In this document: positions 16,716-56,936 of the stretch, one piece after another
How the letters are laid out: each line of letters opens with the position of its first letter
Numbering within the stretch: the first letter of the stretch is position 1
Assembly (NCBI GenBank): GCA_031282835.1
Contig: JAITCU010000020.1
Location: forward strand, 15,805-79,804
From: Puniceicoccales bacterium
Lineage (GTDB): Bacteria; Verrucomicrobiota; Verrucomicrobiia; Opitutales; JAIRLM01
DNA length: 64,000 nt
Direction: 5' to 3'
The notes under the pieces: model-generated
What the model saw: the letters and a program-made list of their open reading frames with translations, nothing else
Databases searched by the model: none
What the model was told of the DNA's origin: nothing
Program-made: the position numbers and the translations under genes

Positions 16716-16790
16716 GCCATGCGGGGACGACGATTAAAACGGGACCCTTCGAAAATATTTGCTAGATTTTTACGTTCCAACGAAAAAGCG

Positions 16791-22432: not shown

Positions 22433-22438
22433 GGCAAC

Positions 22439-23227: not shown

Positions 23228-23248
23228 GGCGTATTCCCAGGGCTAGGG

Positions 23249-23518: not shown

Positions 23519-23659
23519 GGAACAATCCCCGCGTCGAGTGTTGGGAAAAAACGCCATACCGCAACTCTTTTGGAAGCGGATGGGCACAAATATTGGGCTA
23601 GTGGCGAAGTCGGCCATTTCCACTTGACGCTGCCGGGATACTACCGATTCATGGTCGCC

Positions 23660-24940: not shown

Positions 24941-24965
24941 GGGCCTGGGGATGTACGCTAGGCTG

Positions 24966-25115
24966 CTACCGAAATATGAATTTTTTAAAGATGTAAAATT
25001 TGTCATTAACATATGGTTGGGTCCAGTGAACATTAATACTGATTTGAATAATACCAGAGATACTAGCTGGGAGCTTTCCTGCGCGTGACATCATAATTGG
25101 AAGGTTCAATGCCAT
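24966..25115 (-). pseudogene. 49-codon relic of a giant-gene-like 5' end (cassette C2)
   Basis: Starts with ATGGCATTG at the same place relative to the conserved leader as the giant ORF (ATGGCGCCA). GGTATTATTCAAATCA...CCAACC resembles GGCATCTTCAAATCA...CCAACC at codons 36-50 of the giant gene. It stops after 49 codons, next to the serS 3' end. Confidence 0.35.
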
Positions 25116-26650: not shown

Positions 26651-26747
26651 TAACAGAGGTCCTGCAAAAGTCGGAAACACTGTCTTAAGACCCGCATTTC
26701 ATGAGGGGCAAAATGGCCCAAAAGCGACTTCAGCAGGATCTCTAATG

Positions 26748-26750
<3 letters not shown>
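26651..26750 (+). repeat. ~97-bp palindromic element, copy A
   Basis: TAACAGAGGTCCTGCAAAAGTCGG...CGACTTCAGCAGGATCTCTAATGTTA: imperfect ~20-bp terminal inverted repeats around the internal hairpin CCCGCATTTCATGAGGGG. The right arm contains the stop codon of the Pro-rich gene on the other strand. Confidence 0.7.
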
Positions 26751-28382
<1,632 letters not shown>

Positions 28383-30098: not shown

Positions 30099-31277
30099 TC
30101 AGGTTGAAAGCCATTTAACCGCATTGCATACTCCGGCTTGAAAGCATTGTCGTAATTCGGCGGATACGGCGTTGAACTCCGAGCGTGCGTTGATGAGCAT
30201 AAGCAGTTGGCGCGCAATAACATCAGCCCGAGCCGCTCCTTGGATGTATTCCCGATAACATTCATAACCCAGGATGATATTTGCCAGGGCGAGAAATGGA
30301 ATTTTTATCAATTGCTGTCCGATCCAATGAGTCAGCGGACTGGTTTTGTAGATTACTACGCCGGGAATGCCCTCCAGGGCACACTGGAAAGACATGGTTC
30401 CAGAGCTTACGAGGGCCAGCCGTCCTCCGATGGGATTTTTGCGTGCCTCGTCCATGGGAATCAGTTGAATTTTGGGGGAAATTTTGGGGAATTTTCGCAA
30501 TTCCGCCTCCAGAAGTTCACGAATAGTTTCCGTGGGGTGAATGCAAACGGCGGACCAGTCGTCGCTTTTTTGCATTTCGGCGAATGCCTCCAGCATAGTC
30601 GGAAAAATACACCGAATATTTTGCCGCCGGCTGCCTGGGAGGAGGAAGATCGTTTGGTTTTTTTCGTAATGGATGGGACTTTTATGGTCTGGTGCCAGGA
30701 AGGGATGGCCTGTGAAAGTTACGGGCAGGGTGGTATCCGCGAAAACTTTGCTCTCAAATGGAAACAGGACGGCCAATGCGTCCAAGTCTTTTGCCATGGC
30801 AAAGCGGCGACTGGCTTTCCACGCCCACACCTGCGGCGCGACGTAGTAATAGAGCGAAACCGTCCCGCCACCCTTTAGGGAAATTTTTCGTTCACACAGG
30901 GCGCGAGCGACGCGCAAATGAAGTGCAGGGGAATCAATGAGGCAAATTCGTTTGGGGCGGTGGTTGTCTATCCACCGGATGACGTCCTGGTAATACTTAT
31001 AAAAAAAGCGCCCGTTGCGCAAGACTTCCCAAAATCCTAGAGCCGCATGCTCGGTGAGATCAAAGAGAAAATGAGGTGCTACCCGGGCCATATTGCGTCC
31101 GCCAATGGCGTAGATTTTTTCCCGAGGCCGTATTTTCAGAAGTCCTTCGATGAGTCGCGCCCCTAGCTCATCCCCAGAACACTCCGCCGCCATGAGCAAC
31201 AGGTCGACATCTCCTTGTGCCGGCGGGATTAACGGGATCGTGGAACTCACACATGGAATAACGGGTAAAAGTGGCAT
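30099..31277 (-). CDS. lpxB: lipid-A-disaccharide synthase
   Basis: The N-terminal AAECSGDELGARLIEGLL matches the LpxB AGE.SGD signature. Start set at Met 31277 to give ~392 aa; the longer ORF-track start (31409) would overlap divergent mpl. The start is uncertain. Confidence 0.8.
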   Translation of the reverse strand: MPLLPVIPCVSSTIPLIPPAQGDVDLLLMAAECSGDELGARLIEGLLKIRPREKIYAIGGRNMARVAPHFLFDLTEHAALGFWEVLRNGRFFYKYYQDVIRWIDNHRPKRICLIDSPALHLRVARALCERKISLKGGGTVSLYYYVAPQVWAWKASRRFAMAKDLDALAVLFPFESKVFADTTLPVTFTGHPFLAPDHKSPIHYEKNQTIFLLPGSRRQNIRCIFPTMLEAFAEMQKSDDWSAVCIHPTETIRELLEAELRKFPKISPKIQLIPMDEARKNPIGGRLALVSSGTMSFQCALEGIPGVVIYKTSPLTHWIGQQLIKIPFLALANIILGYECYREYIQGAARADVIARQLLMLINARSEFNAVSAELRQCFQAGVCNAVKWLST

Positions 31278-31323
31278 TAGCGCAATCCTATTGAGGCCGG
31301 ATTTGGGAACTCGACTTTCGCCG

Positions 31324-32805
31324 ATGGATTCTTGGAAATCGTCTGTGCAGCAAGATAATAAACGTGAACGTTTATATTTTTTAGCTATCGGCGGCGTGGC
31401 CATGGGCAATGTGGCGCTTTTGGCAAAGCGGCTGGGATACGAGGTTAGTGGCTGTGATCATAAGCTTTATCCGCCCATGGACCAGTTGTTGGGCGCAAGT
31501 GGCATTCCACTTGTGGAGGAATTTTCCCTGGAACATCTGATAAATTTTGTTCCACAGCGCGTTATTATTGGCAATGCCGTTGCCCGGGGAAATGCTGTGT
31601 TGGAGTATCTCCTTGAACGGGAGCGCCATCGTATGGTGTCGCTGCCAGAATTTTTTTCCCGGGATTTGGTAAAGGCTCGGAAACGCATTGTAATAAGCGG
31701 TACCCACGGGAAAACCACAACGGCTGCGCTGGCGGCATTTTACATGCGGCAAATGGGCGTACCTGGCGGATATTTTATTGGTGGCATTCCTAAGAATTTG
31801 CCGGGCGGTGTGGACCTGGGCGATGGTGCGGCTCCGTTCGTTTTTGAAGGGGATGAGTACGATTGTGCGTTCTTTGATAAGCGGAGCAAGTTTATTCATT
31901 ATTTGCCCGATACAGTTGTGATTAATCGCATCGATTTCGACCATGGGGATATTTTTCGCGATATCGGTGCCGTACAACGTAGTTTTTCTCATTTGCTGCG
32001 GCTCGTGCCGAACAGCGGTCATGTAATTGTCAACGGTGAGGACCCTAACATTGGCGCCATTTTGCCCGTGCCGTGGACGACCGTCCATCGGGTGGGATGG
32101 AAAAAGGAAAATGACTTTTCCCTGCAAAATTTTTCCATGGACCGGGGCGGTAGCAGGTGGGAGGTGGTACACGAGGGCGGGGCCTTTTGTGTGCAAACGG
32201 GTCTCCACGGGCGATTTAATGCCATGAATGCTACGATGGCCATTCTGGCGAACCACCTCACGCTGAATTTGCCTTTTCCCAAAGAAATTGATCTCCGGGA
32301 TTACGAAGGTGTGTGCCGGCGACAGGAAAAGTTGGTTGAAAATAGCGGTCTGGTTGTAATCGAAGACTTTGGCCACCATCCCCGGGCGGTTGCGGAAGTG
32401 CTTGCATCCCTGCGAGCACAGTACCCACATGATGAGCTTATTGCCTGCTTTGAGCCCGCCACTAACACTTCCATGTACCGCATGTGGGAGGAGGATTACG
32501 TCAGGGCATTTTCTGCCTGTGACCGCTGTTTCTGGGGCGTGCCGAGGAATATGGCTGGAGTTCCCTCGGAAAAGCGTTTGCGCGTTGATCGGCTCATGGG
32601 CGCGCTTTCCCAGAGCATTGGAGAAGCACGGCATTTTAGTGAAAACAAACTCCTGCTTGATCATCTGTTAGAGACACTCCAGGAAAATCCCAGCGGGAAA
32701 CGGCATGTGGTCGTACTTTTTTCCAGTGGCGCGTTTCCCGACGTACTCCCCTATTGGCGCTTGCGGGCCGGCCACGGCGCAAACGACAAGGAAGCGAGTT
32801 TATAG
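31324..32805 (+). CDS. mpl: UDP-N-acetylmuramate:L-alanyl-gamma-D-glutamyl-meso-DAP ligase (Mpl) / MurC-family ligase
   Basis: Start moved to MDSWKS (31324). N-terminal AIGGVAMGNVALLAKRLGYEVSGCD and the P-loop ISGTHGKTTT. Mpl versus MurC cannot be fully resolved by eye. Confidence 0.7.
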   Translation: MDSWKSSVQQDNKRERLYFLAIGGVAMGNVALLAKRLGYEVSGCDHKLYPPMDQLLGASGIPLVEEFSLEHLINFVPQRVIIGNAVARGNAVLEYLLERERHRMVSLPEFFSRDLVKARKRIVISGTHGKTTTAALAAFYMRQMGVPGGYFIGGIPKNLPGGVDLGDGAAPFVFEGDEYDCAFFDKRSKFIHYLPDTVVINRIDFDHGDIFRDIGAVQRSFSHLLRLVPNSGHVIVNGEDPNIGAILPVPWTTVHRVGWKKENDFSLQNFSMDRGGSRWEVVHEGGAFCVQTGLHGRFNAMNATMAILANHLTLNLPFPKEIDLRDYEGVCRRQEKLVENSGLVVIEDFGHHPRAVAEVLASLRAQYPHDELIACFEPATNTSMYRMWEEDYVRAFSACDRCFWGVPRNMAGVPSEKRLRVDRLMGALSQSIGEARHFSENKLLLDHLLETLQENPSGKRHVVVLFSSGAFPDVLPYWRLRAGHGANDKEASL

Positions 32806-40664: not shown

Positions 40665-42620
40665 TCATGCCTCATATTGCAAGGTTGCAATGTGGCTTTC
40701 GTGCCGAGACTTTCTTCCTCTCCACTTCCAGCTTTTTCGGCCATTTCGATGCGGTTTTTCAGGTATGACAAATTCGTCCATGTTGAGCGTTGGCTTTCCA
40801 GAGAGGTCACCTTTTTGGAAAAACTTTCCGTAGGGATCGGCTTCATCCGGTGAGACCTCCACGATGCGCGGGGAGATGATGAATAGGCGCTCCATGGTTT
40901 CCGTTGCCCGATCGGCCATGCTGAAAAGCCGGCCAACAACGGGCAGGTTCTTTAGGACTGGGATCCCACGCCGCCCATCGCTGTGGTGCTCATAGTAATA
41001 GCCGCCGACGATGAGGCTCTGTCCCTCGTTGAGGATGGATTGGGTGTTAATTTGACTACTGCTGACCAGAGGCATTCCCGCGGAGCCTCCGGAGTCGGAC
41101 ATGGCCCCGTCTTCGATGCTGACAAAGAGTTTGATTTTACGCTCCACTGTCCCATCCGACCTGGGAATCTCGATGATGTGGGGGATGACACGCAGGGCGA
41201 CCTTTGCGGAAACGGTGAATAGATCCGTGGCATAGGCGCCGGCCACGGGCACGTAGGTTTCCCGGTTATTGGAAATAACGGCGGCGATATTATCCAATGT
41301 CAGCACCGAGGGGCGGGAGAGGGTCTTTGCCGCACTGGATGACTCCAAAGCTTGCAACCGAGCAGTGATTCCCGATGCTCCAATGTTCGGGACCTTTAAA
41401 TAGAAGTTTAAATTTTTGTCGTCCAGTGTCACGTCCCCGCCTTCCGTGCGCCACAGCAGAGATCGTTCTCCATTAAGGAATTCCAGTACGTCGATACCCA
41501 TTTTGTGACTTCTGCCCACGTTGATATCCACGATGGCCACGTCGATTTCAACGGCCTTCGTGGGGACGTCAAAGCGGTCGATCAGCGATTGATAAAATGG
41601 CATGAGTTCCTTGCGATCCCTTATTATTACTGCATTTTGCCGGGCATCGTAGGTAATGGCGGTAAACTTTCCAGTTAGGTTCCTGGCCTCAGCTTCTTCA
41701 ACGGAGGTTTTAGTTTTTCTATCGTCCGTGGTCCGCAAAGGCTTGGAAGATAGCTTGGTAATTCCTTTCAATTGCGAAACCTGGGTTGATTGTTTTTTCG
41801 CCTCCTGGTCCTGTTGGGCCGCTTGTGCAGCCAACTGTTGGGCCTGATTTATCGCCGAGGAAACCGCAGATTGCTGCTGCAGTACTCCATCCAGGGTATG
41901 GGGCTTGGCCGGCGCACCCAGTAAGACGCTCTCCTGCATGACGTTGGGGATGGTGTTCATCCCGCTCAGGATGCGGGTTAGGAGCGTTGCCACGCCTTCG
42001 ATGAGGACGCCGTTGCCGGTGCCAACGTCTAATGTGACGTCGTAGGCGAAGGCATATTTTAATGGGAAAATTTGAACCACGGTTTCATCGGCGAAGTTCT
42101 GAATGGCATTCGTTTGGACCTTGGCGAGGAACGTGCGCAGTACCTCGAGGAACCGGGGCGGCCCGCTGGCGACCATCATCCGCGTATCTGGAACGTAGCG
42201 AAGGACGGTGTTTGACCCGGCAAAATCCAGGTCAGACACAACCTTTCGTAGGGCCGAGGCTTCTTGGGCGGTCATGGAAATGACCTCCGTCTTTATTTCC
42301 GTCCCCGGGTAGACGTAGAGCGCGGTGCCGTCGTAGAACCAAATCAAGTTGTAGGCCTTGGAGAGTCGCTCCCAAAATTCATGCGGCGGAATATTTTCAA
42401 AAATTCCGTTCACAATGCCGGACAATGGCGCGCCGATGACCACGTCCACCTGCTGAATGGCCGTGAAGTCGTGGATGAGGGCGTTGAGGTCTTGGTTTTG
42501 CGCAAAATGGTAGTAGTGCTCATCCGCCCATGGAATCTCGCCGGCCTGGAGCAAGCCGCCGAGTAGGGAGGAACCGATCGCCAGTACCGTGGACGAAAAA
42601 AAACGACGAAACAATTTCAT
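40665..42620 (-). CDS. sctC: type III secretion outer-membrane secretin SctC (YscC/InvG family)
   Basis: 651 aa with a signal-like N-terminus. The N-domain FWERLSKAYNLIWFYDGTALYVYPGTEI matches the YscC/InvG signature (L.WYYDGN.LYIY). The C-terminal secretin motif is GIPVLKNLPVVGRLF. Confidence 0.9.
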   Translation of the reverse strand: MKLFRRFFSSTVLAIGSSLLGGLLQAGEIPWADEHYYHFAQNQDLNALIHDFTAIQQVDVVIGAPLSGIVNGIFENIPPHEFWERLSKAYNLIWFYDGTALYVYPGTEIKTEVISMTAQEASALRKVVSDLDFAGSNTVLRYVPDTRMMVASGPPRFLEVLRTFLAKVQTNAIQNFADETVVQIFPLKYAFAYDVTLDVGTGNGVLIEGVATLLTRILSGMNTIPNVMQESVLLGAPAKPHTLDGVLQQQSAVSSAINQAQQLAAQAAQQDQEAKKQSTQVSQLKGITKLSSKPLRTTDDRKTKTSVEEAEARNLTGKFTAITYDARQNAVIIRDRKELMPFYQSLIDRFDVPTKAVEIDVAIVDINVGRSHKMGIDVLEFLNGERSLLWRTEGGDVTLDDKNLNFYLKVPNIGASGITARLQALESSSAAKTLSRPSVLTLDNIAAVISNNRETYVPVAGAYATDLFTVSAKVALRVIPHIIEIPRSDGTVERKIKLFVSIEDGAMSDSGGSAGMPLVSSSQINTQSILNEGQSLIVGGYYYEHHSDGRRGIPVLKNLPVVGRLFSMADRATETMERLFIISPRIVEVSPDEADPYGKFFQKGDLSGKPTLNMDEFVIPEKPHRNGRKSWKWRGRKSRHESHIATLQYEA

Positions 42621-42632
42621 TTTACGTGACCT

Positions 42633-43070
42633 CTATCTGTGGGGGTTAGATGGGAGCGTCCCCGGGGCGGGATCGACAAGGTTTTTCAGGGCGAGCCGGT
42701 TACGTTTTACGCTGTCAACGAAATCATCCACCATTTCCCCGATGGAATCTTCGTTGGCCGATTCGAATGGAACATCCAATGATAGGGCAAGCTCGTCGTA
42801 TTCCGGGACATAGACGAGGATCCCTAGTTCGACGATGGCGCGGTCGAAATTCATCTGCAGCAAATCCATGCATCTATCCATTTTCGTAAACACTTCGGAG
42901 GCCCCCTGTAGGAGCTGTCCCTCCAAAAGGAGATTCTTGCCGCTGCTTGCTATGAGCCGAATTTGTGACCCGTCGCCAAGTATGGCCCCGTAGTTACCGC
43001 TCCCATCGGCCTCCCAGTTGAAAACGCCCAACTCCGCGGCGATAATGGAAACTACCTCTGCCCTTTGCAT
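42633..43070 (-). CDS. CesT/SycE-like class I type III secretion chaperone (putative)
   Basis: 145 aa, acidic. N-terminal IIAAELGV....DGSGNYGAILGDGSQIRL and later ELALSLDVPFES follow the pattern I associate with the CesT family. It lies 12 nt upstream of sctC. Confidence 0.5.
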   Translation of the reverse strand: MQRAEVVSIIAAELGVFNWEADGSGNYGAILGDGSQIRLIASSGKNLLLEGQLLQGASEVFTKMDRCMDLLQMNFDRAIVELGILVYVPEYDELALSLDVPFESANEDSIGEMVDDFVDSVKRNRLALKNLVDPAPGTLPSNPHR

Positions 43071-45759: not shown

Positions 45760-45872
45760 AGTGGCAGACTCTCAAACGATTCTCGGGCCTTGCCAAGGAA
45801 AGATATGCCGGCACCATCGAAACGGGGTTCCCCGGGAATATTTACAAAATCTTCGCATTTCCTCCGAAAGCG

Positions 45873-45937
45873 TTGACAAGCGCCCATTCTCAAGCAAGAT
45901 AGTCCAAGAATCTGGATTCTAAAAAAGAAAGTTCAAT
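45873..45937 (+). promoter_or_regulatory. cassette C4 promoter/operator
   Basis: TTGACA(45873-45878), 19 nt, GATAGT, CCA, AGAATCTGGATTCT (45907-45920), AAAAAAGAAAGTTCAAT, then ATG at 45938. Confidence 0.5.
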
Positions 45938-46111
45938 ATGAAAAATGTCATCATTATCGCCCCGCCCATGGCAGATATTTTTAATAGAGGTCCTGCGAAA
46001 GTCAGAAACACTGCCTTGAAACCCGCATTTCATGCGGGGCAAAATGGCTCAAAAGCGACTTCTGCAGGACCTCTATTATCCTCTTACCAACGTAGCCGGC
46101 TAAAACATTAA
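45938..46111 (+). pseudogene. cassette small ORF interrupted by the palindromic element (C4)
   Basis: MKNVIIIAPPMADIFN shares the ADIF(Y/N) motif with C2/C3. From codon 16-17 the frame runs into the 97-bp element and reads through it to a stop at 46109-46111. Confidence 0.4.
45982..46078 (+). repeat. ~97-bp palindromic element, copy B
   Basis: TAATAGAGGTCCTGCGAAAGTC...GACTTCTGCAGGACCTCTATTA, with the internal hairpin CCCGCATTTCATGCGGGG. Confidence 0.75.
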
Positions 46112-46674: not shown

Positions 46675-49600
46675 CTAACCAACCCAACGTGGGATCCAGA
46701 GGGCAACGGCCGCGATGCCCGATGCGGCCCCCGGAAAGAAAAGAAGTGCGTATCCCCAGATGCCAATGGCAAGGATACCGATTATGTTGGTAAATACAAG
46801 GGCCAAAGCGGCGGCGATGAGCAGCAAACCGGAAATAATAGTAAGCGCGATGGCCCAACGTGGGTGCAGTATCTTCCGAGTTGCCGTGACTTGCATTATT
46901 TTCGATTTTGAAGGTCGATCGGGCACGACGGCAATGTCCTCTCTTACCGGGATGTTACCGTCTCCGTCGGGCCAGGTCTTGCCACAGCCCATTCCGAGGG
47001 GCCGGGAGTGGGAAATTGTTGTCCTAACATCCTCCCTGTCCTGGGTCGGGGTGCGGAGGAGGAGATAGTTTTGCCGCAGATTCAACAGCTTTGGATCGTG
47101 ATGTCCCTCACCGTCAGCGGCCATCACCTGCGCCACAAGGTCGCTGTTTTCCGTGAGGAGGTAGGGTATGTTTGCATTAAAAAGCGCCAATTCGCACAAC
47201 TTCCGCTGGCGGAACTCTTTAAGTTCATCCGGGATCTGCCCGTGGAGGCATGTGCCGGTTCCGGCGAGATAGATGCAGCAATTTTGCAGGTTTCCCTCCT
47301 TGGCGCGCAATGTATCGTACTCTTGCTTGGAAACGGCGATTGCACGTGGATTGGTCCTTTCGCTCTCCCATGTGATGACTAAATAACTGCAGTGCTTCTG
47401 GGTACGGTCGAAGACCGTATGTTCGGTTTCGCAGGATTGGGCGAAATTGCGGCTCAAATACAAGTCGGACGGAAAACAAGCGTCAAATTGGGAATAAATT
47501 TCGCGATCCTTCGGGTCCATGGGCCCGCCGTGCTCTCTTATTTGTTCGGGAACCGAACGACTTTTATCGGCGAAAAAGGTGTGCATATCCGTTGGACCAT
47601 CAATGATGAGCAGGTCCTCTTCTTTGGGATCCAGTCGATCGCCATAGCCGACTCGGGTTAGAAATTCTTCCAGCTGCAAATTAACGGAAATATTGCAGTT
47701 AACTTCCACCTCGGTCTGTTCTTGCACTTCGACCTGCACGGAGGCGTCGACATCCCCGGCATAGTTATCCGCGCCAACGGTGACGCATATGCCTTCCGTC
47801 CCTTGGAGGATTCTTACCTTTGTTTCATTGAAAGTTTTGGCGGCTTGTTCATCGAAGCGATCCAACAGTTGCGACTGCTCTAATTTTGTTTTTAATAGTT
47901 GTACTTTCCGATTGTAGTAGGCCTCAACGGCTTCATTGAGCGACATCGTGCGTTGGAGTGCAAAAAACATGGCTTCCGGCGAGAAATCATCCACTTTAGT
48001 CAATAGTTCTCCGACGGCGTTGGAAAAAATTGAAAGCCGCCAAGGGTCACTGGCCAAAGCGATCGCCGTCCGGCGGATGAAATCATCGACGAGTGTGTCC
48101 ACCTTGTCGTAACTGGCCCGGATGTATTGCTGGATAATGCTGCGCGACTGATTTCGCTGCAGGGTCGCATATATGTCCGCGGCCGTCGGTTCCCCGCCGT
48201 CCGCGAGGCGAAGGAATTGCGGCCGCGATTTTTCCAACGCCATGTAGTCAATGGTTTGCGAGCTGAGAAAGGCCCGCGGGCGGATATTCGCTTGGGCATT
48301 GCGATCGGTCGTTAGCCAGCTGGGATCGAGGGTTTGGAGTGCATGGCAATCGATGGGAAGCGGGAGGTCGGTACCCGTGCAACGTTGTTCGTCGTAGTAT
48401 GCAAAAAGAGCGTTGAAATCGTTGACGACGGCCGCCAGGGCCTCCCGGTTCATCGGCCGGATTGCGATGGGCTCCGTTCGATCCGCGCAAAGGACGAAGA
48501 ATGTCTGCCTATCGGGATCGTAATAAAGCACATGACGCACATCCGGAATGTCTTTCTGCGCGAAAGCCAAAATATCCCGCGCCACATCCCGTGGATGCTG
48601 GCCGTTGAGCAATGCTCCGGCGTCAATGAGTGCCCGCAGGCCTGTCACACCACCGACATGGGCCTCCAGCAGCATTTTCGCCGTTGGCCGCGCTTCACCG
48701 TTGTCCACGAATTGAATGGGCTGGGGCCGAGCGCCCATGAGTTCACAGTTCCGGGCAATGACCTGGCCGTCGCTGCCGGCCTGCAATTGGATGTCGACCT
48801 TGGCAAAGTTATATACGCCCTTGTTGGCCATGGTTCCGGAAAATCCGACGGTGCGGCTGAATAACCGCGGAAACTGTGCCGATTTACTCTCAACGGATTG
48901 GGTGGAAAAATGGATGCTTTTTTGGGCAAAAATTCGCGCAACTTTTTGCCGGCCGGAAATTTGAGTGTCTTGCCGAAGGAATGCGCACAGGCATTCGCAT
49001 ATCTTTTTCCGCGTGGATGGATCTGCCGTGGTTACGAGCGTTTCCACGGTCACCGGGCGATCCTCATAGTTGCAGTCCTTGAAGATTTCGTCAAATTCGT
49101 CGAAGGCCTTCCGCTGGCTTTCCTCGTCCGCCACGAGTCGCGATAACATGTCCACGTAGCTCTCAAGCATCCGCAGGGGAACGCCATCGATACTAATTCC
49201 AGCAAAGAAACAGCAGGCCGTCTGGTAGCAATTTTTGAATTCACTGCCCAGGTTGGGCTCGTTGGGCCCTTTGAAGGGGATGCAGGCGCCGTCGAGACCG
49301 AAGCCGAAGTTTTGGTTATATTTTTGCGTGAAAAGATGGGGCAACAGCGTGCCCAGCAGGCCCCGGGCTATGAGTATGCGATCGTAGGAGCGGAGGGATG
49401 CGGCGGTGCCCTGTTCCTTTTGCTGCTGTAAAAAGGCCAAAAATGCGTTTGCTTCCTGGCGCGTGGCGGTGTCCGTCTCCGGGACGTTGTCAAACTGGCC
49501 AAGGACGTATTTGTGGAAGGAGTTGCGCATTTCGTCGGGAATTTGAATGGCAAATTTTTCTTCAAGAACGTTTTGGGACAGCCGCCGCAGCACTTCCTGA

Positions 49601-52600
49601 ACTCGGTCCGGAGCCATGAGATGCTGCTGATTTTGCCGGAGTTCGGGACAAATCTCTGCAACGGAAATAATCACGTCACTGATAAAATCCAGATGCGCCT
49701 GGGGCATTCCCGGCAGCTGTCCGGCTGCCGGAGGTAGGGAAACATTCAGGTATTCCAGCGGGTTGAGGATGCGGTCAATTTCGTCGCCGATGAATATGGC
49801 ATCTTCGCCGAGAAGTTTGAAGATGTCTAGCAAAGTTTGGAGGCAAAGTTCATCCGTTTTGTTCCGCTGGGGCTTCCGCGCCAGGAGCTTGAATTGGGCT
49901 TCGAGTATTTCGATGGTGGTCGGGTCGATGACGAACACCCGGTCCCGCTCCTCCAGCGCCATTTGCATCTCCCGCAAAAGCCACTCCAGATTCCACGGTT
50001 CCCGTGTGTCCTGGAGGGTGAAGTTCGCGGACACAACCCGTATGTTCAGCCGCGAAAAGCTGGGTGCCAGTTCTGCGCGGAGGGCGTCAAACTGGGATTG
50101 ATTGTGGGCACAAACAAATGGGAGCTTCCGCTGCTGGGCTACCCGGGCGGCGTAGGTGGGGATGACCACACTCGTCTTTCCGGCGCCCATCTGCATTTGT
50201 ATGACCGTATCCGTTGGATTTTCCGCCCCCAAACCATCACACAATTTTTTAAGGATGTCGATTTGCCCGCGGCGGGCGTGTTTGCCGCTAACATATTCGT
50301 TGAGAAGGGCGTAGGGGTAACTTTCCGGGTTGTAGGTGTCGTCCCATTCTTCTAATTGGTCGAATAGGCGACTTTGGCAGGCGGACCGGCGGGCACCGTC
50401 ATTACCACCGGCACGTTGGAGGTCCTGAATGACTTGCATCAAATTGGCCATGCGGCGGAACATAATTTTGTGCCGCATGTACTGATGGGAACATTCCATG
50501 ATTTGAGGGACGTCGTCCGGCGTGATGCTGGGATTATATTTTTTGAGGAAATGAAAAAATCGCGCCGTATCGGGTGGCACGCGCGTTGCGAATTGGCCGT
50601 AGGCGGCGATGACCGCTTTGAGCTTTATGGGCGCGGAACAAACGACAACGTCCTGTGCCATTAGCATGGGACTCGGTTTGTTGACCAAGGCGAGGAGTTC
50701 CTCATGCAATTTCCGCGTCTCGGCGCGCATTTTTTGGCGGTGGACCTCGATGGATTGAGATGCGGCGTCACAATCGAAGGGCACCTTCTTAAGTTCCTCG
50801 TTGCGAGCTCGCTTGAGAGCCAATTGCTCGGCGCCGGTCTGGATTTCGCCGTTGAGTTCTTCGAGGGATTTTTGAAACGCATCGCCGATGGTATCCCGGT
50901 CGTCTGGGCTTAATTTTTTCAGATAATCCGCTGGAGTAAAATGGAGTGGACTTGCGGGCGCGGGCGAAGGGTTTTGGTGGAAGGCCACGAGCGCTCTTCG
51001 TAAACCTCCAAGGGCGGTTCCGACTCGGAAAAGTTCATCCTGCATGGGCAGGACTTGCAAATCGTGTGCCGCGGACGAGCCACTTTCCATGGCTTGAACT
51101 TTCTCTTCCTTTGCCAGCAACGGGTCGTAGTGCCGTAACCGTTCCGCCGGTTGTGCAAACTCTGCGGCAACTGAACCCGGGCGCAAAAAGTGGTCCAATG
51201 ACAGTAAACGCTTGGCAATGATCGGCTCCTGCGGATTGAGAATGCCGATGGACGCAAGGTGTTCCAACAGGCGCCGCTCCCGGCGGGGATCCATGCGCAA
51301 TTGTAGGGGCATGGAAGGTAAATTTTTGAGGTATGTTTCGAGGAGCGTCCCCAGGGGTTCGTTTTCAAATTTTAAAGCTCCCTCCCTGGGTTTGAGCACG
51401 GCGATGTCATTGCAATTGAGGCCGTACATTTCCGCCCATTTTTCCAATAGGAGCATGTGAACGGCGGCAACCTTCCCGGAATACCCCTTCATGCGTCGGC
51501 CTTCTAAAAGACAGTCTATCATAAGCTGGTGATGGACCGGCGAGAGGGCGGCTCCGGCGTGAAGTCGCTTAAAATATTCCGCAGCTTGGTCGTAGTCGCC
51601 CTGGAGCAGAAAAATGACGCCCAGTTGCAGGTTCCCGTCGTTGGATAATCCATCCAGGCGGGTTGCACCCGGTTCTTCCCGGCGTTGGACGAAGTGCGCC
51701 TCCACGGGTGTGGCTGTCCCGATGAAAGGCTTGTCCATGGTTGGCGTATTGCAGAAGGCGGAGGACACGGTTGCCCCAATTGGCCCAGCTCGCCCAAGCA
51801 TCTGGGCCACGCCGTCGGGCGCCGCATCATCCAATGCATCATCTCGCTGTGATTGTAAGCCGACGGCGGGCATTATAACTTTGTAGGAACCGGGCTGTTT
51901 CGTATTATGCAAAAAAATCGCATTTTTGTAGCTCCCGAGTGGGTTTGATTTTTTATTGCCGCCCGGGCCGGCGTACATCTCCGGCACGTCTACCAGCTGG
52001 TAATCCGTGCCGCGCTGCATCCATTTGTCGTCGCGCAACTCAAAGCATAAATCATAACGAGGGGCCCAGACCTTTTGCAGCTTGTTATGCGCATCCACAA
52101 AAAAAGCGCAATTTTTCTCATTTTCGAAGCGGGAGAGCCATGTGACACTTTGGGGGTTAGGATGGGGCGCCAAGAAAAGGCCCTTGTATGGTTCAAACGT
52201 GCACTCCAGTTTCCAGTCGGGACCGCTTCCCTGGCTTTGGAAGTAGATGATTTCTGGATGTTTCCGATCGCGCACCTGCAGTTGTCCACCGGGCCCCATC
52301 CATGCGGTGTATGTTTCGCTGCATAGCCAATTCGGAAGTTGAAGAGCCCTTTGTAAAATTCTCGCCGGTGCGTACTGCCACCACTGGTCCGATTTACCGA
52401 AATTGGTGCTAATCACCTGTCCATGCGTACCATAGGAAAGTCGGACGTTCCCGTAGGCTGGATCGGTGAAGGATGTCCATTCGCCGCTGTGGATAAATTC
52501 GCGGTTTTCAGGGCCAAAAAGCCGCTGATAGTCCCGCGCACTGGTGAGTGTGTCCGCCGTTCGAATTTCGTGCCCGCCCCAGAAAACGTGGAAATTGTTA

Positions 52601-55600
52601 AAATCTACCCAGGAATTTTTTGGCACCTCTCCCCCCATGCGTTGGCAGAAACTTGCCAATATTGATCGTTCGATGCGTGCCCGTTTGTTTGGAGACTTTT
52701 GCAGGAGACCACCCAGCTCTGGAACGGTACCACAAATGGTTTTGTAGCAGGAGTGCGGTATGCCTTGTAATTTGAGCGCGCGGGAGGCGAAAACGTCTCC
52801 GTAGAACCCGACGAGGAGTCCATCATCGATTTCTTCAATTTTGGAGCCATCGGTGAAGAACTTCATCCGTTCCACGGCGAGCTCGACCCTGGCTAGGTGT
52901 AAAATCGCCTGTTCGTCCGAGCCCAGGGTGCGGCCAAACTTTCTTTCTATTTCGTCGAGTTGCTGTAACCTCAATTCGACGGATGGGAAAATGGGTTCTT
53001 CGGTGGAACTAAATGGGCAGCCATGTATCTCCATGTGGATTTCTTGACACTGATGGATGAGGTGTGCCATGTAACAAAGGGCGTGTACGTCTGGCCGCTG
53101 GAAGGGTTTCATTTCCAGGTGGAGGCGCAGGACGGAGTTATACGTATCTTGCAATACTCTGAATAATTTTTCCGGATTTCGTTCGATCTCATCGGCAAGG
53201 GAACAAACCGGTCGGCTGGCAAACGGCCTTTCTCTGAAGAGTTGGCCATCCATTACGTAATGGGATCTGTTTTCCGCGGCGTTGGGAATGGATTCCGGAC
53301 GCTCGGCCTGTTGAAAGTTGGCAAGCAGCATGTTGTCCAACAGCGCAAGGAGCATGGTCTTTCCGTGCTGTTCCCTGTCATCGACGCCGAAACGGCTGAA
53401 TAGATCCAGGTGTGAATTGATGATGTCGAAGAGGGAATACACCTGCGTCCCGGGGACGGAGAGGGCCTTCCCAATTTCATAGAATAGGGGATGCTCGGCA
53501 AACGCCGTGTTGCCACCGTTTAGGAAACGTTTGCTGTGATATTCCAGCTTGGCCGGGGCGCCACGGCCATCGCACACCAGCTCAGGGACATGGGTCACAT
53601 TCCATGGGTCCAGGGCGGACACGTGATTTTCATCGTTGAAGCAGCGCCAATTGAACTTATCGCGTTCGTCCCAGTAATCCCACATGAGAGGAAGTTGATC
53701 CGATTGGACGCAGGCGCTCTCAAGTTGTACGCTTGGAAGCTGGTGCGGGTAAAATTCGTTGAATAAAAGTTTCGGACCGGGGATACCACCCAAAATCTTG
53801 CGCACGGACTCCCAATGGGCGCATTGGTCCTCAAATACGTATTTCGTGTCGTCGACGGATCTTGCCCAAACGTACGCCCATTTTCGTTCTTCGAAAAACT
53901 TGTCCATTTGGCCGTCAGGAGCTCCCGGGACTATCTTGCCAGCCACATTTTGAAAACCGGGACACGCCGCTGAAAAGCGTTGCAATTGACTCATGCCCTC
54001 GTCAGGTCCATGGCCGCCGTAGTTACAATACGAACGCATATAGGAATCACTGCGATCGATGGTTCCACAACCTAACGAAAAATCCACGGTCTGTGACTTG
54101 TTGTGCCTGTAAAAGTCTAACACCTTTTGCTGTCGTTCGCGATCTGCGGCGGACATGGATTGGCATGCGTCATTGGCGGTAAATAATTCAAATACATGGC
54201 AATCAAGTGAATATGCGGACAGACTGTCATCTGTCGCGCCACCGAGGCCTCCGGGCATTTTTAATAGCCAGAATGTGACCAGCCTGATATTGGTCACTTC
54301 CGCCGCGAATGGGGCCGCAATGTGCCAGGGGAGTTCGGCGCTGCTTTGGTCCAAAATTTGTTCCTCGAGGCCGGAACTGAAGAAATGTCGGTAGCCATCG
54401 GTTACGGACGACAAACTACCCCCCATTTGCTCGGTTAGCTTATCTAAGAATCTAGCAAAGATAGCAACGCACCGCTTATGGTCGTCAGAGTTCCCCTGCG
54501 CCCAGAATGGATCATTGGGCAATGGCAAAAGGGACATCAATTCCTTGGCGTAAAAGATACCCGCGTAGTCGTAGGGTTTACTTGTGGTGTCAAATGAGAA
54601 ATTCGCCATCGCATTAAGAACTTTGGCGTAATCTCTCTTTAGCAATTCGATTTCCGGGCGGACGATCTCAATGTGGGGGACCACATCGGCTTCGGTGGCC
54701 TTGTGAAGCACGCTTTGAATTTTAGCCGACATGTCACCACCCGGCGGCGGGGCGATGGTTTCAGGGAATGCATTTCGCGTCTCCGCCTGGTGCATGGCTT
54801 GGTAGTATTCGGGACTTTTTAGTGTGGTGTCGCATCGGTTCAAAAGGGCTTCCATCCCGTCAACGTATGGCGCAGCATCCGCGGAAAGTTCCTTAAGCCT
54901 ATGGCCATATTTTCTTAGAAAAAGCTCCGTGGTACCGACGCTTTCCCGGAGCATCCACAATTGATCCATTTTCCGCGCCGGGTCTCCAGCGGGATCGGTA
55001 AGTACATTGCTACAATGGTCATGAAGTGCCCCAAGCGCGCCCAGGCGGTTGAAGAGTTCGATGAGCCGCGTGTATTCACCGCTGCGTTTGACGAGCGCTT
55101 TCAATTCCGAAGGTGTTCCGTGTGGGTGTTTGCGCAAGAGATGCTGATAGATCGTCATGCGGAAGAGTGCCGCCAACGAAGCCCATGGGTCTTTATCGGA
55201 AACCTTGGAAAATAAATCCCCACGCAATGCTGCATGGCCATCCAGGAGAACCTCGTGGCCAATCTGGGTACTGGGATCCTCACCCCCCCAAAGTTTTTCG
55301 AAATTGCCTTGCTGGGCTGCAAATTCAATGAATTTGGGTAGAATGCTTTTGAGTGCATCCGCATTCAGGTGGAAGGACCGGCCCAGTCGGCTTTTTTCTA
55401 CGAAGGACGCATGCCTCTGTTTGTCGAATTCACCGCGCGCCCGGCTGGAACTAACATCGATCTCATGAAAATAAAATGTCCCGTCATCCAGCTTCTCAAC
55501 CACCACATAGCAGCAACTGGTTTGGCCATGAGCCTCGGGATAAGTGAGAGGCATGCAAAATCGTTGGCCTGGGTTTAGCGTACGGATTTTCTCAGAGATT

Positions 55601-56172
55601 TCCTCAGATTTTGCGGCAATTTGTGTTTTCAGCTCCGGTTCCCATAACGCCGCAAACGGGACCATTTCCGCGGAGAATGCTTGCGCCTGCTTGGCCATTG
55701 AGCGCAGTTCGGCGACCAAATCATGGGCCTCGCGGCCTTTGAGGATCCCCTCCATTTGGTCGAATACCCGCACGCTTGTTTCCAGCGGAGATTGCGAATC
55801 GCCATCATTTTCAATGGAAGTTTCGTGGATGAATTCGCGCATCAGGACCGGACCAACGGGCGCAGAGAAATGAGACGGGCTTTCCTCCTCGGGCGGCAAT
55901 GCGTTGGATGGAGCAAACGCCTCGGAAAACGGGTTGATATTCATAATGGCGGTATTATACATCTCCCGGGAGAGAACGCAATGCTCTCCCCATGGAATGT
56001 CTATTATAAATAGACAATTCCCCGGGTTGGCAAAATTTAAAGTAGAATTTTTGATTTGAAGATGCCCTTTTAGCAGACACACTCCCTTCTTTTGTTTTTT
56101 CATATTTTCTCGCGCTTTCTTAATATTAGAGCACGCCACGCCACCGGAAGGGTCTTCCGGACATGGCGCCAT
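46675..56172 (-). CDS. giant (3165-aa) tail-anchored protein with a SecA/SF2-like P-loop ATPase module (candidate effector)
   Basis: Uninterrupted 9498-nt ORF. Motifs: QMQMGAGKTSVVIP (nt 50173-50187), FIGDEIDRIL (49774-49785), VGFSGTM (48832-48846) and YDEQRCTGTDLPLP (~48364-48393). A C-terminal bilobed hydrophobic anchor at 46678-46860. No signal peptide. The start codon is uncertain. Confidence 0.9.
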   Translation of the reverse strand: MAPCPEDPSGGVACSNIKKARENMKKQKKGVCLLKGHLQIKNSTLNFANPGNCLFIIDIPWGEHCVLSREMYNTAIMNINPFSEAFAPSNALPPEEESPSHFSAPVGPVLMREFIHETSIENDGDSQSPLETSVRVFDQMEGILKGREAHDLVAELRSMAKQAQAFSAEMVPFAALWEPELKTQIAAKSEEISEKIRTLNPGQRFCMPLTYPEAHGQTSCCYVVVEKLDDGTFYFHEIDVSSSRARGEFDKQRHASFVEKSRLGRSFHLNADALKSILPKFIEFAAQQGNFEKLWGGEDPSTQIGHEVLLDGHAALRGDLFSKVSDKDPWASLAALFRMTIYQHLLRKHPHGTPSELKALVKRSGEYTRLIELFNRLGALGALHDHCSNVLTDPAGDPARKMDQLWMLRESVGTTELFLRKYGHRLKELSADAAPYVDGMEALLNRCDTTLKSPEYYQAMHQAETRNAFPETIAPPPGGDMSAKIQSVLHKATEADVVPHIEIVRPEIELLKRDYAKVLNAMANFSFDTTSKPYDYAGIFYAKELMSLLPLPNDPFWAQGNSDDHKRCVAIFARFLDKLTEQMGGSLSSVTDGYRHFFSSGLEEQILDQSSAELPWHIAAPFAAEVTNIRLVTFWLLKMPGGLGGATDDSLSAYSLDCHVFELFTANDACQSMSAADRERQQKVLDFYRHNKSQTVDFSLGCGTIDRSDSYMRSYCNYGGHGPDEGMSQLQRFSAACPGFQNVAGKIVPGAPDGQMDKFFEERKWAYVWARSVDDTKYVFEDQCAHWESVRKILGGIPGPKLLFNEFYPHQLPSVQLESACVQSDQLPLMWDYWDERDKFNWRCFNDENHVSALDPWNVTHVPELVCDGRGAPAKLEYHSKRFLNGGNTAFAEHPLFYEIGKALSVPGTQVYSLFDIINSHLDLFSRFGVDDREQHGKTMLLALLDNMLLANFQQAERPESIPNAAENRSHYVMDGQLFRERPFASRPVCSLADEIERNPEKLFRVLQDTYNSVLRLHLEMKPFQRPDVHALCYMAHLIHQCQEIHMEIHGCPFSSTEEPIFPSVELRLQQLDEIERKFGRTLGSDEQAILHLARVELAVERMKFFTDGSKIEEIDDGLLVGFYGDVFASRALKLQGIPHSCYKTICGTVPELGGLLQKSPNKRARIERSILASFCQRMGGEVPKNSWVDFNNFHVFWGGHEIRTADTLTSARDYQRLFGPENREFIHSGEWTSFTDPAYGNVRLSYGTHGQVISTNFGKSDQWWQYAPARILQRALQLPNWLCSETYTAWMGPGGQLQVRDRKHPEIIYFQSQGSGPDWKLECTFEPYKGLFLAPHPNPQSVTWLSRFENEKNCAFFVDAHNKLQKVWAPRYDLCFELRDDKWMQRGTDYQLVDVPEMYAGPGGNKKSNPLGSYKNAIFLHNTKQPGSYKVIMPAVGLQSQRDDALDDAAPDGVAQMLGRAGPIGATVSSAFCNTPTMDKPFIGTATPVEAHFVQRREEPGATRLDGLSNDGNLQLGVIFLLQGDYDQAAEYFKRLHAGAALSPVHHQLMIDCLLEGRRMKGYSGKVAAVHMLLLEKWAEMYGLNCNDIAVLKPREGALKFENEPLGTLLETYLKNLPSMPLQLRMDPRRERRLLEHLASIGILNPQEPIIAKRLLSLDHFLRPGSVAAEFAQPAERLRHYDPLLAKEEKVQAMESGSSAAHDLQVLPMQDELFRVGTALGGLRRALVAFHQNPSPAPASPLHFTPADYLKKLSPDDRDTIGDAFQKSLEELNGEIQTGAEQLALKRARNEELKKVPFDCDAASQSIEVHRQKMRAETRKLHEELLALVNKPSPMLMAQDVVVCSAPIKLKAVIAAYGQFATRVPPDTARFFHFLKKYNPSITPDDVPQIMECSHQYMRHKIMFRRMANLMQVIQDLQRAGGNDGARRSACQSRLFDQLEEWDDTYNPESYPYALLNEYVSGKHARRGQIDILKKLCDGLGAENPTDTVIQMQMGAGKTSVVIPTYAARVAQQRKLPFVCAHNQSQFDALRAELAPSFSRLNIRVVSANFTLQDTREPWNLEWLLREMQMALEERDRVFVIDPTTIEILEAQFKLLARKPQRNKTDELCLQTLLDIFKLLGEDAIFIGDEIDRILNPLEYLNVSLPPAAGQLPGMPQAHLDFISDVIISVAEICPELRQNQQHLMAPDRVQEVLRRLSQNVLEEKFAIQIPDEMRNSFHKYVLGQFDNVPETDTATRQEANAFLAFLQQQKEQGTAASLRSYDRILIARGLLGTLLPHLFTQKYNQNFGFGLDGACIPFKGPNEPNLGSEFKNCYQTACCFFAGISIDGVPLRMLESYVDMLSRLVADEESQRKAFDEFDEIFKDCNYEDRPVTVETLVTTADPSTRKKICECLCAFLRQDTQISGRQKVARIFAQKSIHFSTQSVESKSAQFPRLFSRTVGFSGTMANKGVYNFAKVDIQLQAGSDGQVIARNCELMGARPQPIQFVDNGEARPTAKMLLEAHVGGVTGLRALIDAGALLNGQHPRDVARDILAFAQKDIPDVRHVLYYDPDRQTFFVLCADRTEPIAIRPMNREALAAVVNDFNALFAYYDEQRCTGTDLPLPIDCHALQTLDPSWLTTDRNAQANIRPRAFLSSQTIDYMALEKSRPQFLRLADGGEPTAADIYATLQRNQSRSIIQQYIRASYDKVDTLVDDFIRRTAIALASDPWRLSIFSNAVGELLTKVDDFSPEAMFFALQRTMSLNEAVEAYYNRKVQLLKTKLEQSQLLDRFDEQAAKTFNETKVRILQGTEGICVTVGADNYAGDVDASVQVEVQEQTEVEVNCNISVNLQLEEFLTRVGYGDRLDPKEEDLLIIDGPTDMHTFFADKSRSVPEQIREHGGPMDPKDREIYSQFDACFPSDLYLSRNFAQSCETEHTVFDRTQKHCSYLVITWESERTNPRAIAVSKQEYDTLRAKEGNLQNCCIYLAGTGTCLHGQIPDELKEFRQRKLCELALFNANIPYLLTENSDLVAQVMAADGEGHHDPKLLNLRQNYLLLRTPTQDREDVRTTISHSRPLGMGCGKTWPDGDGNIPVREDIAVVPDRPSKSKIMQVTATRKILHPRWAIALTIISGLLLIAAALALVFTNIIGILAIGIWGYALLFFPGAASGIAAVALWIPRWVG

Positions 56173-56284
56173 TAGGAGGCTAAATGCTATTGTCGTCTTC
56201 GGCCGATTTGCCGAAGTAATAACTCGCCTTTTTTGTTAATTGATTTTCATTGGTTTTCCGATCGTCCAAGCTAGCTTGTTTTTT
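56173..56284 (-). promoter_or_regulatory. conserved structured leader, cassette C5
   Basis: AAAAAACAAGCTAGCTTGGACGATCGG, AATGAAAATCAATTAACAAAAAAGG, and GTTATTACTTCGGCAAATCGGCCGAAGAC with the stem-loop CTTCGGC/GCCGAAG (56197-56216). CCTCCT lies immediately before ATG 56172. Confidence 0.45.
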
Positions 56285-56329
56285 CTACTTACCCGCCGTG
56301 TGGGCGGTGATAATGGTAATACTTTTCAT
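56285..56329 (-). CDS. 14-codon cassette ORF (C5), internally deleted version of the C2/C3 ORF
   Basis: MKSITIITAHTAGK. It has the same promoter, SD and ATGAAAAG start as C2/C3. Whether it is translated is unknown. Confidence 0.3.
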   Translation of the reverse strand: MKSITIITAHTAGK

Positions 56330-56392
56330 GTTGAGCCTTTTTTTAGAATCCTGATTCTGGAATTATCTTGCGGGTAAGTTTGGGAATGTCAA
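56330..56392 (-). promoter_or_regulatory. cassette C5 promoter/operator upstream of the giant gene
   Basis: TTGACA(56392-56387), 19 nt, GATAAT(56367-56362), TCC, AGAATCAGGATTCT (56358-56345), AAAAAAAGGCTCAAC, then ATG at 56329. Confidence 0.55.
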
Positions 56393-56936
56393 CGGCTTTG
56401 TAAAAAACGCATGAATTTGGCAGATATTTTCGGAAAGTCCTCTTTTCGGCGGCAACGTGGCACGAGGTTTCCGGAAGGGGACCTGCCTTCTGGGCCAAGC
56501 CGTTTGTTTATGAAGGCCACAGCCTAGCAACGCCAGCAGTATCCGTGAGCGATTCAAAGATTTAAGACCCTCCACTCAAGAGAATTGCCAACAAAAACAC
56601 AATGTCATGGGTTGCGCAAATGGCAAGATCGGCGGCTGTCAATTCGTAGGCAAAAATCACACCTTATATGATATGCGCAAATACAATTAAGTGCGAATTG
56701 CAAAGCCCAGAGTTGTAAAATCAATAGCCGCGGCTAACTACGCAAATAGCACTCAGCAAACTAGCCATAAAATTTTTGCACATAGCAATTGCCGGTTACT
56801 GCAGGGAAAACTCGCATCGCAAGATCACCCGAGGATGATGCGATAAATTTTTGACAGACCCAACTATAATTCCGCCTAGAAATAATAGGTTTGGCGTTGT
56901 CATTGGCGGGATGGATAGCATTCATTGCCCCGGATA

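Follow-up and report, generated by a model that had tools for sequence, protein, structure and literature searches.

The DNA analysed in this study, a stretch of 64,000 nucleotides referred to below as the window, originates from a reduced, metagenome-assembled Puniceicoccales genome of about 900 genes (Verrucomicrobiota; Opitutae/Puniceicoccales group). On its minus strand the window encodes a giant DUF3638 protein, the gene of which is preceded by a promoter-bearing cassette, designated C5, and by a hairpin-rich junction. With a probability of roughly 0.7, C5 represents a decayed, truncated copy of a dispersed repeat confined to the source genome, the conserved leader in front of the giant gene is a remnant of this repeat, and the gene itself starts at Met77 of its maximal open reading frame (ORF). 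The terminal ATG of the C5 leader opens the frame of the giant gene 76 codons upstream of this start and thus gives rise to an illusory protein of 3165 amino acids (aa). No evidence was found for a dedicated riboswitch in front of the gene. An over-extended ORF beside a repeat remnant is ordinary, and the wider interest lies in the repeat family itself. The features of the junction are as follows:

56315-56453, minus strand: C5 promoter module (nhmmer profile of five copies, E 2.8e-34)
56329 (ATG) to 56287-56285 (TAG), minus strand: C5 pseudo-ORF remnant of 14 codons, MKSITIITAHTAGK followed by the stop
56170-56284, minus strand: C5 3' "leader" segment of the repeat (nhmmer E 7.8e-34; eight-copy alignment)
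56233-56247, minus strand: C5 mini-ORF within the leader
55945-56169, minus strand: unique, hairpin-rich stretch, almost certainly untranslated and formerly read as codons 2-76 of the giant ORF
56133-56169, minus strand: hairpin 2, with the perfect core CCGGAAG-ACC-CTTCCGG at 56160-56144, extending to GGCGCCATGTCCGGAAG / CTTCCGG..TGGCGTGGCGT
56003-56033, minus strand: second promoter-like site TTGCCA-N19-TATAAT, 59 nt upstream of the Met77 ATG
55998-56016, minus strand: hairpin 3, a palindrome TGTCTATT-TAT-AATAGACA, extendable to GGAATTGTCTATT...AATAGACATTCC
55968-55990, minus strand: hairpin 4, GGGAGAG-N9-CTCTCCC, 24 nt before the Met77 ATG
46675-55944, minus strand: giant gene as re-delimited here, 3089 aa beginning MNINPFSEAF, with Met77 encoded by the ATG at 55944

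Codons 1-76 of the maximal ORF are almost certainly not translated, as the sequence-only reading of this DNA had already suspected for the annotated 5' end of the gene. In a coding test based on a 3-periodic Markov model, for which 21 other confident genes of the window, without the tested gene, served as the training set, the segment from Met1 to Met71 scored -7.6 and the 210 nt following Met71 scored +7.3. The 84 in-frame sections of the giant gene reached a mean of +9.3 (standard deviation 6.1) with a minimum of -2.9, all of them thus lying above the Met1-Met71 value. Compared to 354 in-frame 210-nt sections of real genes (mean +10.2, standard deviation 7.3), the segment falls into the lowest 1.1%, a score typical of non-coding sequence. 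Along the reading frame, the coding score is negative until approximately position 55990 and positive from there on.

A further indication of the start position came from P0032, a protein of 3041 aa that matches query residues 143-593 at 51% identity and was the one true homologue recovered when 1.84 billion representative proteins were searched exhaustively with HMMER. The maximal ORF of P0032 begins with MDISSFTQA (ATG 9812 of contig L086) and has a TAA stop codon two codons before this ATG. BLASTP placed V109 of the giant protein opposite V34 of P0032 (E 2e-15), so that Met1 of P0032 comes to lie opposite Met77 (MNINPFSEA versus MDISSFTQA). On the basis of the coding model and of this alignment, with the stop codon two codons upstream, Met77 (ATG 55944) is probably the true start, Met71 being the less likely alternative. 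P0032 itself was called from the ATG at 10001, although its frame is open from 9812, i.e., 63 codons earlier; as its N-terminus is conserved with that of the giant protein, the called start of P0032 is probably 63 codons late.

Extension of a gene to an upstream in-frame ATG with an open frame is a common annotation artefact. In agreement with this, three pipelines provided three different starts for the giant gene, namely Met1 (IMG, 3165 aa), Met24 (Logan/Prodigal, 3142 aa) and Met71 (NCBI PGAP, 3095 aa, MDR2677341.1, with a product that would begin MYNTAIMNINPF), whereas Met77 was used by none of them. What distinguishes the present case from the usual artefact is that the false ATG belongs to the conserved positions of a repeat. 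Met24, which the sequence-only reading had offered as the true start, gained no support. The same reading had argued from the lack of a Shine-Dalgarno (SD) sequence; the SD is indeed absent, but this carries little weight, since the majority of confident genes in the window have none either.

The C5 cassette itself could be dissected by comparison with its relatives in the window. Its promoter module consists of a conserved upstream block, a TTGACA hexamer (56392-56387), a 19-nt spacer, GATAAT and the palindrome AGAATCAGGATTCT, and scores 11/12 against the sigma-70 hexamers with this 19-nt spacer. The 14-codon remnant follows, from which about 155 nt are absent compared to C2 and C3. The 112-nt leader proper (56284-56173) has homologues at 25218-25091 in C2 and 33005-32880 in C3 (E ~1e-34 each) and carries AGCTAGCT, AATGAAAATCAATTAACAAAAAA and the hairpin CTTCGGC-AAATCG-GCCGAAG (hairpin 1, 56216-56197). 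The family promoter, the short ORF with its missing central segment, the leader shared with C2 and C3, the CCTCCT in front of ATG 56172 and four 7-bp hairpins had all been read from the letters beforehand, and each of them was recovered at the same place.

Within the C5 leader, the palindrome AAGCTAGCTT is followed by an SD-like GGAAAA, the mini-ORF ATGAAAATCAATTAA, hairpin 1, a pyrimidine tract and the terminal ATG, with ATGAAAATCAATTAACAAAAAA located between AAGCTAGCTT and hairpin 1. CCTCCTA directly precedes the ATG at 56172, which is the first ATG of the 3165-codon ORF and hence Met1 of the maximal giant ORF. Detectable homology of C5 to the other repeat copies ends at this ATG; the 3' extension, by which other full copies run about 110-125 nt further, is absent from C5. 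The stretch behind the ATG had been aligned by eye as a counterpart of this extension, but this was rejected because a profile built without C5 misses it. The idea that the C5 ORF continues in frame into the giant ORF was likewise discarded, as the two frames differ (56329 - 56172 = 157).

An alignment of eight leader copies yielded a consensus composed of the palindrome AAGCTAGCTT, CCGATCGG, an SD-like GGAGAA, a mini-ORF, an A-run, hairpin 1, ACAACA, a pyrimidine tract and (A/G)TG. Five leaders terminate in ATG, two in GTG and one in ACG, so that this last triplet shows no conservation as a start codon. For hairpin 1, pairing was observed in 83.6% of cells, compared to 32-53% in slid controls, along with three compensatory cells (e.g., CTTCGG/CCGAAG changed to CTGCGG/CCGCAG in the copy L081), with a covariation score of 0.276 versus 0.172 for shuffles that was reached by 20 of 500 shuffles. 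Its covariation support is real but modest. A mini-ORF of 3-4 codons ending in TAA, placed after the SD-like GGAGAA, was observed in seven of the eight copies (C5, with equivalents in C2, C3 and L082-L085), the stop codon being lost in L081.

To the repeat family belong five promoter modules and three leaders recovered in the window with profiles built from the window copies (E 1e-31 to 7e-36), and no further promoter or leader copy was found above noise in the 64 kb by profile search. A profile of the small ORFs of C2 and C3 identified 28 paralogous pseudo-ORFs, all from one NCBI "Puniceicoccales bacterium" genome (locus tags LBB26_00095 to LBB26_04560) and every one annotated as hypothetical protein; no match from any other organism was obtained with this profile. 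Truncated copies exist in addition to the 28 annotated paralogues, so that the total amounts to about 30 or more. Five paralogues (L081-L085) were fetched as DNA from the Logan assembly, where the contigs of L082-L085 start within the promoter module just ahead of the ATG, which suggests that the assembly breaks at the repeat. The copies located on DNA are:

16728-16870, plus strand: C1 promoter module
25531-25399, minus strand: C2 promoter module; 25218-25091, minus strand: C2 leader
33309-33179, minus strand: C3 promoter module; 33005-32880, minus strand: C3 leader
45812-45952, plus strand: C4 promoter module
56453-56315, minus strand: C5 promoter module; 56289-56166, minus strand: C5 leader (profile bounds)
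L081, co-oriented with the downstream neighbour, an M50 protease gene
L082, co-oriented with the downstream neighbours, a trpR-like gene and ABC transporter genes
L083, co-oriented with the downstream neighbour, a Na/H antiporter gene
L084, co-oriented with the downstream neighbours gidB-topA
L085, convergent with the downstream neighbour, a glycosyltransferase gene

A full copy measures about 450-570 nt, comprising a promoter module of about 140 nt and 300-430 nt of transcribed sequence, and is arranged from 5' to 3' as promoter module, SD, ATG and a frame of 54-64 codons (the core of about 160 nt), leader and variable 3' extension. Pairwise identity of the promoters among the copies is 70-77% over 79-146 nt. 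In every family promoter inspected (C1-C5 and L081), 19 nt separate TTGACA from the best -10 hexamer; a GAATTC-type palindrome follows at the likely transcription start, and the conserved block GGGAYTTYCCGAAAATATTTGC is found some 45-70 nt ahead of the -35 hexamer. Both the palindrome and this block could be sites for a common regulator.

Regarding the genomic placement, six of the ten copies examined precede unrelated genes (alaS, M50 protease, trpR-like, Na/H antiporter, gidB and the giant gene) and four (C2, C3, C4 and L085) converge on a neighbouring gene, as expected from random orientation. C4 faces the 3' end of the giant gene in convergent orientation, and C2 and C3 are stand-alone units converging on a neighbouring gene. 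The apparent ORFs behind C2 and C3 are antisense shadows of serS and of an mpl/murC-like ligase gene, so that neither copy is located upstream of a gene: the 594-aa ORF (23249-25033, minus strand) lies opposite serS (23570-24940, plus strand) and the 427-aa ORF (31381-32664, minus strand) opposite the ligase gene (31150-32805, plus strand). The sole real minus-strand gene within the 594-aa ORF is sctS (Pfam Bac_export_3), which occupies its 3' ~90 codons. In C1, L081, L083 and L084 the repeat reaches the next start codon or ends at most about 50 nt from it, for which reason the family promoters plausibly drive the neighbouring genes. C1 (16728-16980, plus strand) is truncated after about 60 transcribed nt and fused to alaS, its 41-codon ORF overlapping the alaS start codon at 16978 as ATGA; accordingly, the family promoter probably drives alaS.

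The repeat family looks confined to the source genome, as judged from searches in sequence collections. The leader pattern had no matches in GTDB species genomes or JGI metagenomes, and the core pattern had none in JGI metagenomes. Profile searches detected no repeat copy in 80 AlaS-anchored loci of related Verrucomicrobiota and none in the 27-kb locus of the homologue of the giant gene. The closest AlaS in GTDB shares only 53% identity and is encoded in metagenome-assembled Puniceicoccales genomes; the nearest AlaS relatives hint at a termite gut as a possible source of the sample.

Analysis of the core, formerly read as a gene of 61-64 codons, revealed that it behaves as RNA, not protein. 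The RNAalifold consensus comprises seven helices with 45 pairs (-35.95 kcal/mol), and pairing was observed in 91.7% of cells, compared to 34-54% when the partners were slid by 1-3 columns. Compensatory cells numbered 14, versus 2-5 in the slid controls, and the observed pairing and compensation were reached by none of 500 shuffles. Frequent G-U pairs indicate that the fold sits on the transcribed strand. Furthermore, the arms of helix 5 in the 28 paralogues encode either P..W (CCA/TGG, 10 copies) or S..R (TCG/CGA, 9 copies), mixed combinations being limited to 3 and 1 (Fisher p = 0.0028). The core thus displays a conserved fold with compensatory changes, as a structured RNA family would, with the support for hairpin 1 remaining modest. 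In C5, the deletion took out helices 2-7 together with the larger part of closing helix 1 of this consensus; its ends map to the base of the closing helix, from the 5' to the 3' strand, so that the whole structured domain is gone.

Between C5 and Met77, a stretch of approximately 226 nt harbours hairpins 2, 3 and 4 and the second promoter-like site. It has no homology to the other repeat copies by profile or to the region upstream of the homologue P0032, which is unrelated in sequence and unstructured (z = +1.8). The sequence-only reading was right in considering the density of structure unusual: together with hairpin 1, four perfect 7-bp hairpins occur within 266 nt, where 0.18 are expected from the window-wide density, a number found in 1 of 1275 sampled 266-nt sections and in none of 2000 dinucleotide shuffles. 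The RNA fold of 55935-56350 reaches -111.1 kcal/mol (z = -3.43), and the unique stretch alone folds with z = -3.18. Hairpin 2 extends to a stem of 16 pairs (local fold -25.0 kcal/mol, z = -3.65). At its relative position, hairpins were also detected in L082 (-20.6 kcal/mol), L084 (-21.2) and, weaker, L081 (-11.3), but in none of C2, C3, L083 and L085; given the strong stems in L082 and L084, hairpin 2 may be a decaying feature of the repeat. The middle of the hairpin 3 palindrome coincides with the -10 hexamer of the second promoter-like site, and hairpin 4 pairs an SD-like GGGGAGAG with CUCUCCC. As GGGGAGAG lies about 40 nt from the Met77 ATG, it is not the ribosome-binding site of the giant gene. 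No SD was found 5-10 nt ahead of this ATG, which itself stays unpaired in the minimum-free-energy fold. None of hairpins 1-4 sequesters a ribosome-binding site correctly placed for Met77.

The giant gene would be transcribed from the family promoter of C5, with a predicted start near 56355 and a leader of about 410 nt, from the second site, with a predicted start near 55996 and a leader of about 50 nt that begins with hairpin 4, or from both. The hairpins would then act in a generic manner, by stabilising the 5' end of the messenger RNA, by partial insulation from read-through or, over the -10 palindrome, as an operator, and presumably not as a sensor of ligand or temperature.

Several points weigh against the explanation of the junction as a repeat remnant followed by a start at Met77. 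Only one homologue, 51% identical, serves to fix the start, and Met71, six codons upstream of Met77, may still be used instead. An open upstream stretch of 76 codons has a chance of about 2.6% per gene, which is unremarkable across about 900 genes, though not negligible. The covariation was derived from 7-8 related DNA copies, whose kinship inflates the shuffle control, the slid controls being fairer. In a genome where SD sequences are rare, the core frame opens with an invariant ATGAAAA behind a strong conserved SD (AAGGAG), so that the pseudo-ORF may still be translated. Finally, three sites in the 64-kb window score 11/12 against the sigma-70 hexamers (C1, C5 and 56033-56003, all with the unusual 19-nt spacer), and since chance alone would produce about 1.4 of them in the 128 kb of both window strands, the second promoter is suggestive only.

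Among the other explanations, it is possible, though clearly less probable than the one preferred here, that C5 is an inert relic and that the giant gene is transcribed only from 56033-56003, with hairpin 2 stopping or insulating transcription from C5. The second site has a perfect TATAAT and the 19-nt spacer of the family, and the very stable hairpin 2 (-25 kcal/mol) is located between C5 and this site; however, hairpin 2 lacks a U-tract, as do the other three stems, and a terminator scan found nothing on the minus strand from 56400 to 55900. Moreover, L081, L083, L084 and C1 abut their downstream genes without an obvious second promoter, which suggests that promoters of the family probably do drive neighbouring genes.

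It may also be considered, again tentatively, that the cassettes constitute an undescribed class of self-promoted structured RNA modules acting as portable expression units in about 30 or more copies. Each module would supply a promoter, a translated structured leader and a mini-ORF; C5 would have been domesticated for the giant gene, and the hairpin-rich junction would tune or insulate its expression.

A dedicated cis-regulatory 5' untranslated region formed by the C5 leader and the hairpins (riboswitch-like, an RNA thermometer or a translational switch), as favoured by the sequence-only reading, appears unlikely. The stretch is untranslated and unusually structured, hairpin 1 is retained in most copies with few compensatory changes, and hairpin 4 places the pairing of the SD-like GGGGAGAG with CUCUCCC close to the start. 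However, the conserved part is a repeat that also occurs in copies convergent on their neighbours and before unrelated genes, RNAalifold detected in the leader a single conserved helix of 5 pairs (-2.7 kcal/mol), and nothing corresponding to the unique hairpins was seen ahead of the homologue. Among the additional leader copies, covariation gave modest support to hairpin 1, and no other conserved leader helix emerged. No Rfam match to the C3 or L081 copies was found even at E <= 10, and a scan of the window at the gathering threshold returned three tRNAs only. Neither a covariance-model match nor a consistent placement before related, co-oriented genes, as known for Rfam riboswitches and leaders, was therefore observed. 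With regard to RNA thermometers of the ROSE or fourU type, no hairpin sequesters an SD or the start codon of Met77, the SD-like GGGGAGAG being too distant. A T-box reading of the leader, prompted by the position of C1 before alaS and of C2 near serS, was rejected for lack of an Rfam match.

Similarly improbable is the view that the cassettes are genes for small secreted proteins, e.g., type III substrates with Ser/Thr/Ile-rich N-termini, of which C5 would be a pseudogene unrelated to the expression of the giant gene. The strong SD and the invariant ATGAAAA would be in line with this, as would the type III system encoded in the source genome and an open frame in 28 copies, against 1-3 stops in each of the two other frames. 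In contrast, the variability of the core by codon position is 0.228 / 0.257 / 0.240 (seven full DNA copies), and the ratio of non-synonymous to synonymous changes (dN/dS) of its frame is 0.73; without a third-position excess, these values indicate almost neutral evolution as protein. The C-termini of the 28 paralogues stop at many differing points, AlphaFold on the 28-sequence alignment gave no confident fold (predicted local distance difference test 57.7, predicted template modelling score 0.18), and for none of the 28 proteins is a precomputed Pfam domain listed. The frame therefore displays neither the purifying selection nor the confident fold or known domain of a small-protein family. The amino-acid co-variation obeys base pairing (CCA/TGG versus TCG/CGA), and the proportion of copies staying open, about one third, equals by our own estimate the expectation for an ancestral ORF decaying neutrally. 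A type I toxin was discarded as well, the encoded peptide not being hydrophobic.

Finally, a lineage-specific N-terminal extension of 53-76 residues, which would make the maximal or the Met24 ORF real, has the open frame upstream of Met77 and the IMG and Prodigal calls on its side but is highly improbable, given a coding score below every in-frame section of the giant gene, a Met1 ATG that forms the last conserved triplet of the repeat and is replaced by GTG or ACG elsewhere in the family, a stop codon in the homologue two codons before its MDISSF start, and 5 Cys together with four perfect hairpins in the region of these 76 residues.

Compared to systems described so far, the repeat shares features with several classes. 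The nearest parallel is provided by putative mobile promoters, defined as segments of 50-100 nt with at least 80% nucleotide identity, which recur as near-identical promoters before unrelated genes of one genome (Matus-Garcia, Nijveen and van Passel 2012, PMC3488235). Homologous promoters were likewise found here before alaS and the giant DUF3638, M50 protease, gidB and antiporter genes; however, the present repeat is longer (140 nt of promoter and 300-430 nt of transcribed sequence), its identity of 70-77% is below the limit, it carries a covarying structured RNA, and four of the ten copies do not face a gene start. With miniature inverted-repeat transposable elements (MITEs), repetitive extragenic palindromic (REP) sequences and REPINs, Rickettsia palindromic elements and Correia elements, it has in common the many diverged intergenic copies in a small symbiont genome, and the internal deletions and nested insertions (an 88-nt palindromic element in two copies) are those of dispersed non-autonomous repeats in host-restricted bacteria. 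It differs from the latter in its own sigma-70-like promoter, its multi-helix sense-strand fold and the failure to find consistent terminal inverted repeats or target duplications, and it is much longer than REP or Correia units. As for MITEs and other DNA transposons, no inverted-repeat pair recurred at the ends of C2, C3 and L081, the 5' boundary being only approximate so that this test was not exhaustive, and no transposase or reverse transcriptase gene was found in the window.

Multicopy small RNAs and type I toxin-antitoxin messenger RNAs (hok/sok) resemble the family in the predicted self-promoted transcripts of 300-450 nt, the many paralogues and the small ORF embedded in a long-range fold. 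Unlike such loci, the family encodes a peptide that is not hydrophobic, occurs in a far higher copy number (about 30 or more among about 900 genes), and yielded neither an antisense promoter nor an Rfam match.

In practical terms, the gene model should be corrected to 3089 aa from MNINPFSEAF, replacing 3165, 3142 or 3095 aa, and the explanation of an apparently riboswitch-like leader as a repeat remnant represents a useful negative result. Beyond this, a small host-associated verrucomicrobial genome was found to contain dozens of diverged units combining a promoter with a covarying RNA, which are annotated as hypothetical proteins. If functional, these units would show a reducing genome rewiring its transcription through a portable RNA/promoter module; if selfish, they would represent an unusual non-autonomous element devoid of the usual transposon hallmarks.

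Concerning the giant protein itself, Pfam DUF3638 (PF12340) was detected at aa 1946-2137 of the maximal ORF (E 5.5e-13; 49.2 bits versus a gathering cut-off of 31), in agreement with its NCBI name, DUF3638 domain-containing protein; the domain is a P-loop. The giant protein (46675-46860, minus strand) and P0032 both end in a conserved pair of hydrophobic segments (…IALTIISGLLLIAAALALVFTNIIGILAIGIWGYALLFFPGAASGIAAVALW…), which we assume to be similar to the bilobed membrane anchors of chlamydial inclusion-membrane proteins. In view of the type III secretion genes in its vicinity, the protein is a candidate for a secreted effector. Components of such a system encoded in the window are located at two sites, namely sctS-sctT-sctU (21317-23530, minus strand), where sctS has no adjoining sctR, and the secretin gene sctC with a gene for a CesT-like chaperone (40665-43070, minus strand). 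A 544-aa protein (26748-28382, minus strand) with acidic E/A/P/T-rich repeats, followed by about 45 uninterrupted prolines, looks like an effector by its composition.

A second repeat family in this genome is represented by an 88-nt palindromic MITE-like element, AGAGGTCCTGCGAAAGTC ... GACTTCTGCAGGACCTCT, with the inner hairpin CCCGCAT/ATGCGGG, for which three copies were recorded:

45986-46073 of the window, plus strand: copy inserted in the pseudo-ORF of cassette C4
~26655-26743 of the window, plus strand: stand-alone copy
304-391 of L083: copy inserted in the leader of the L083 repeat copy

The window also contains dnaA (13485-14909, plus strand), and the replication origin may therefore be located nearby.

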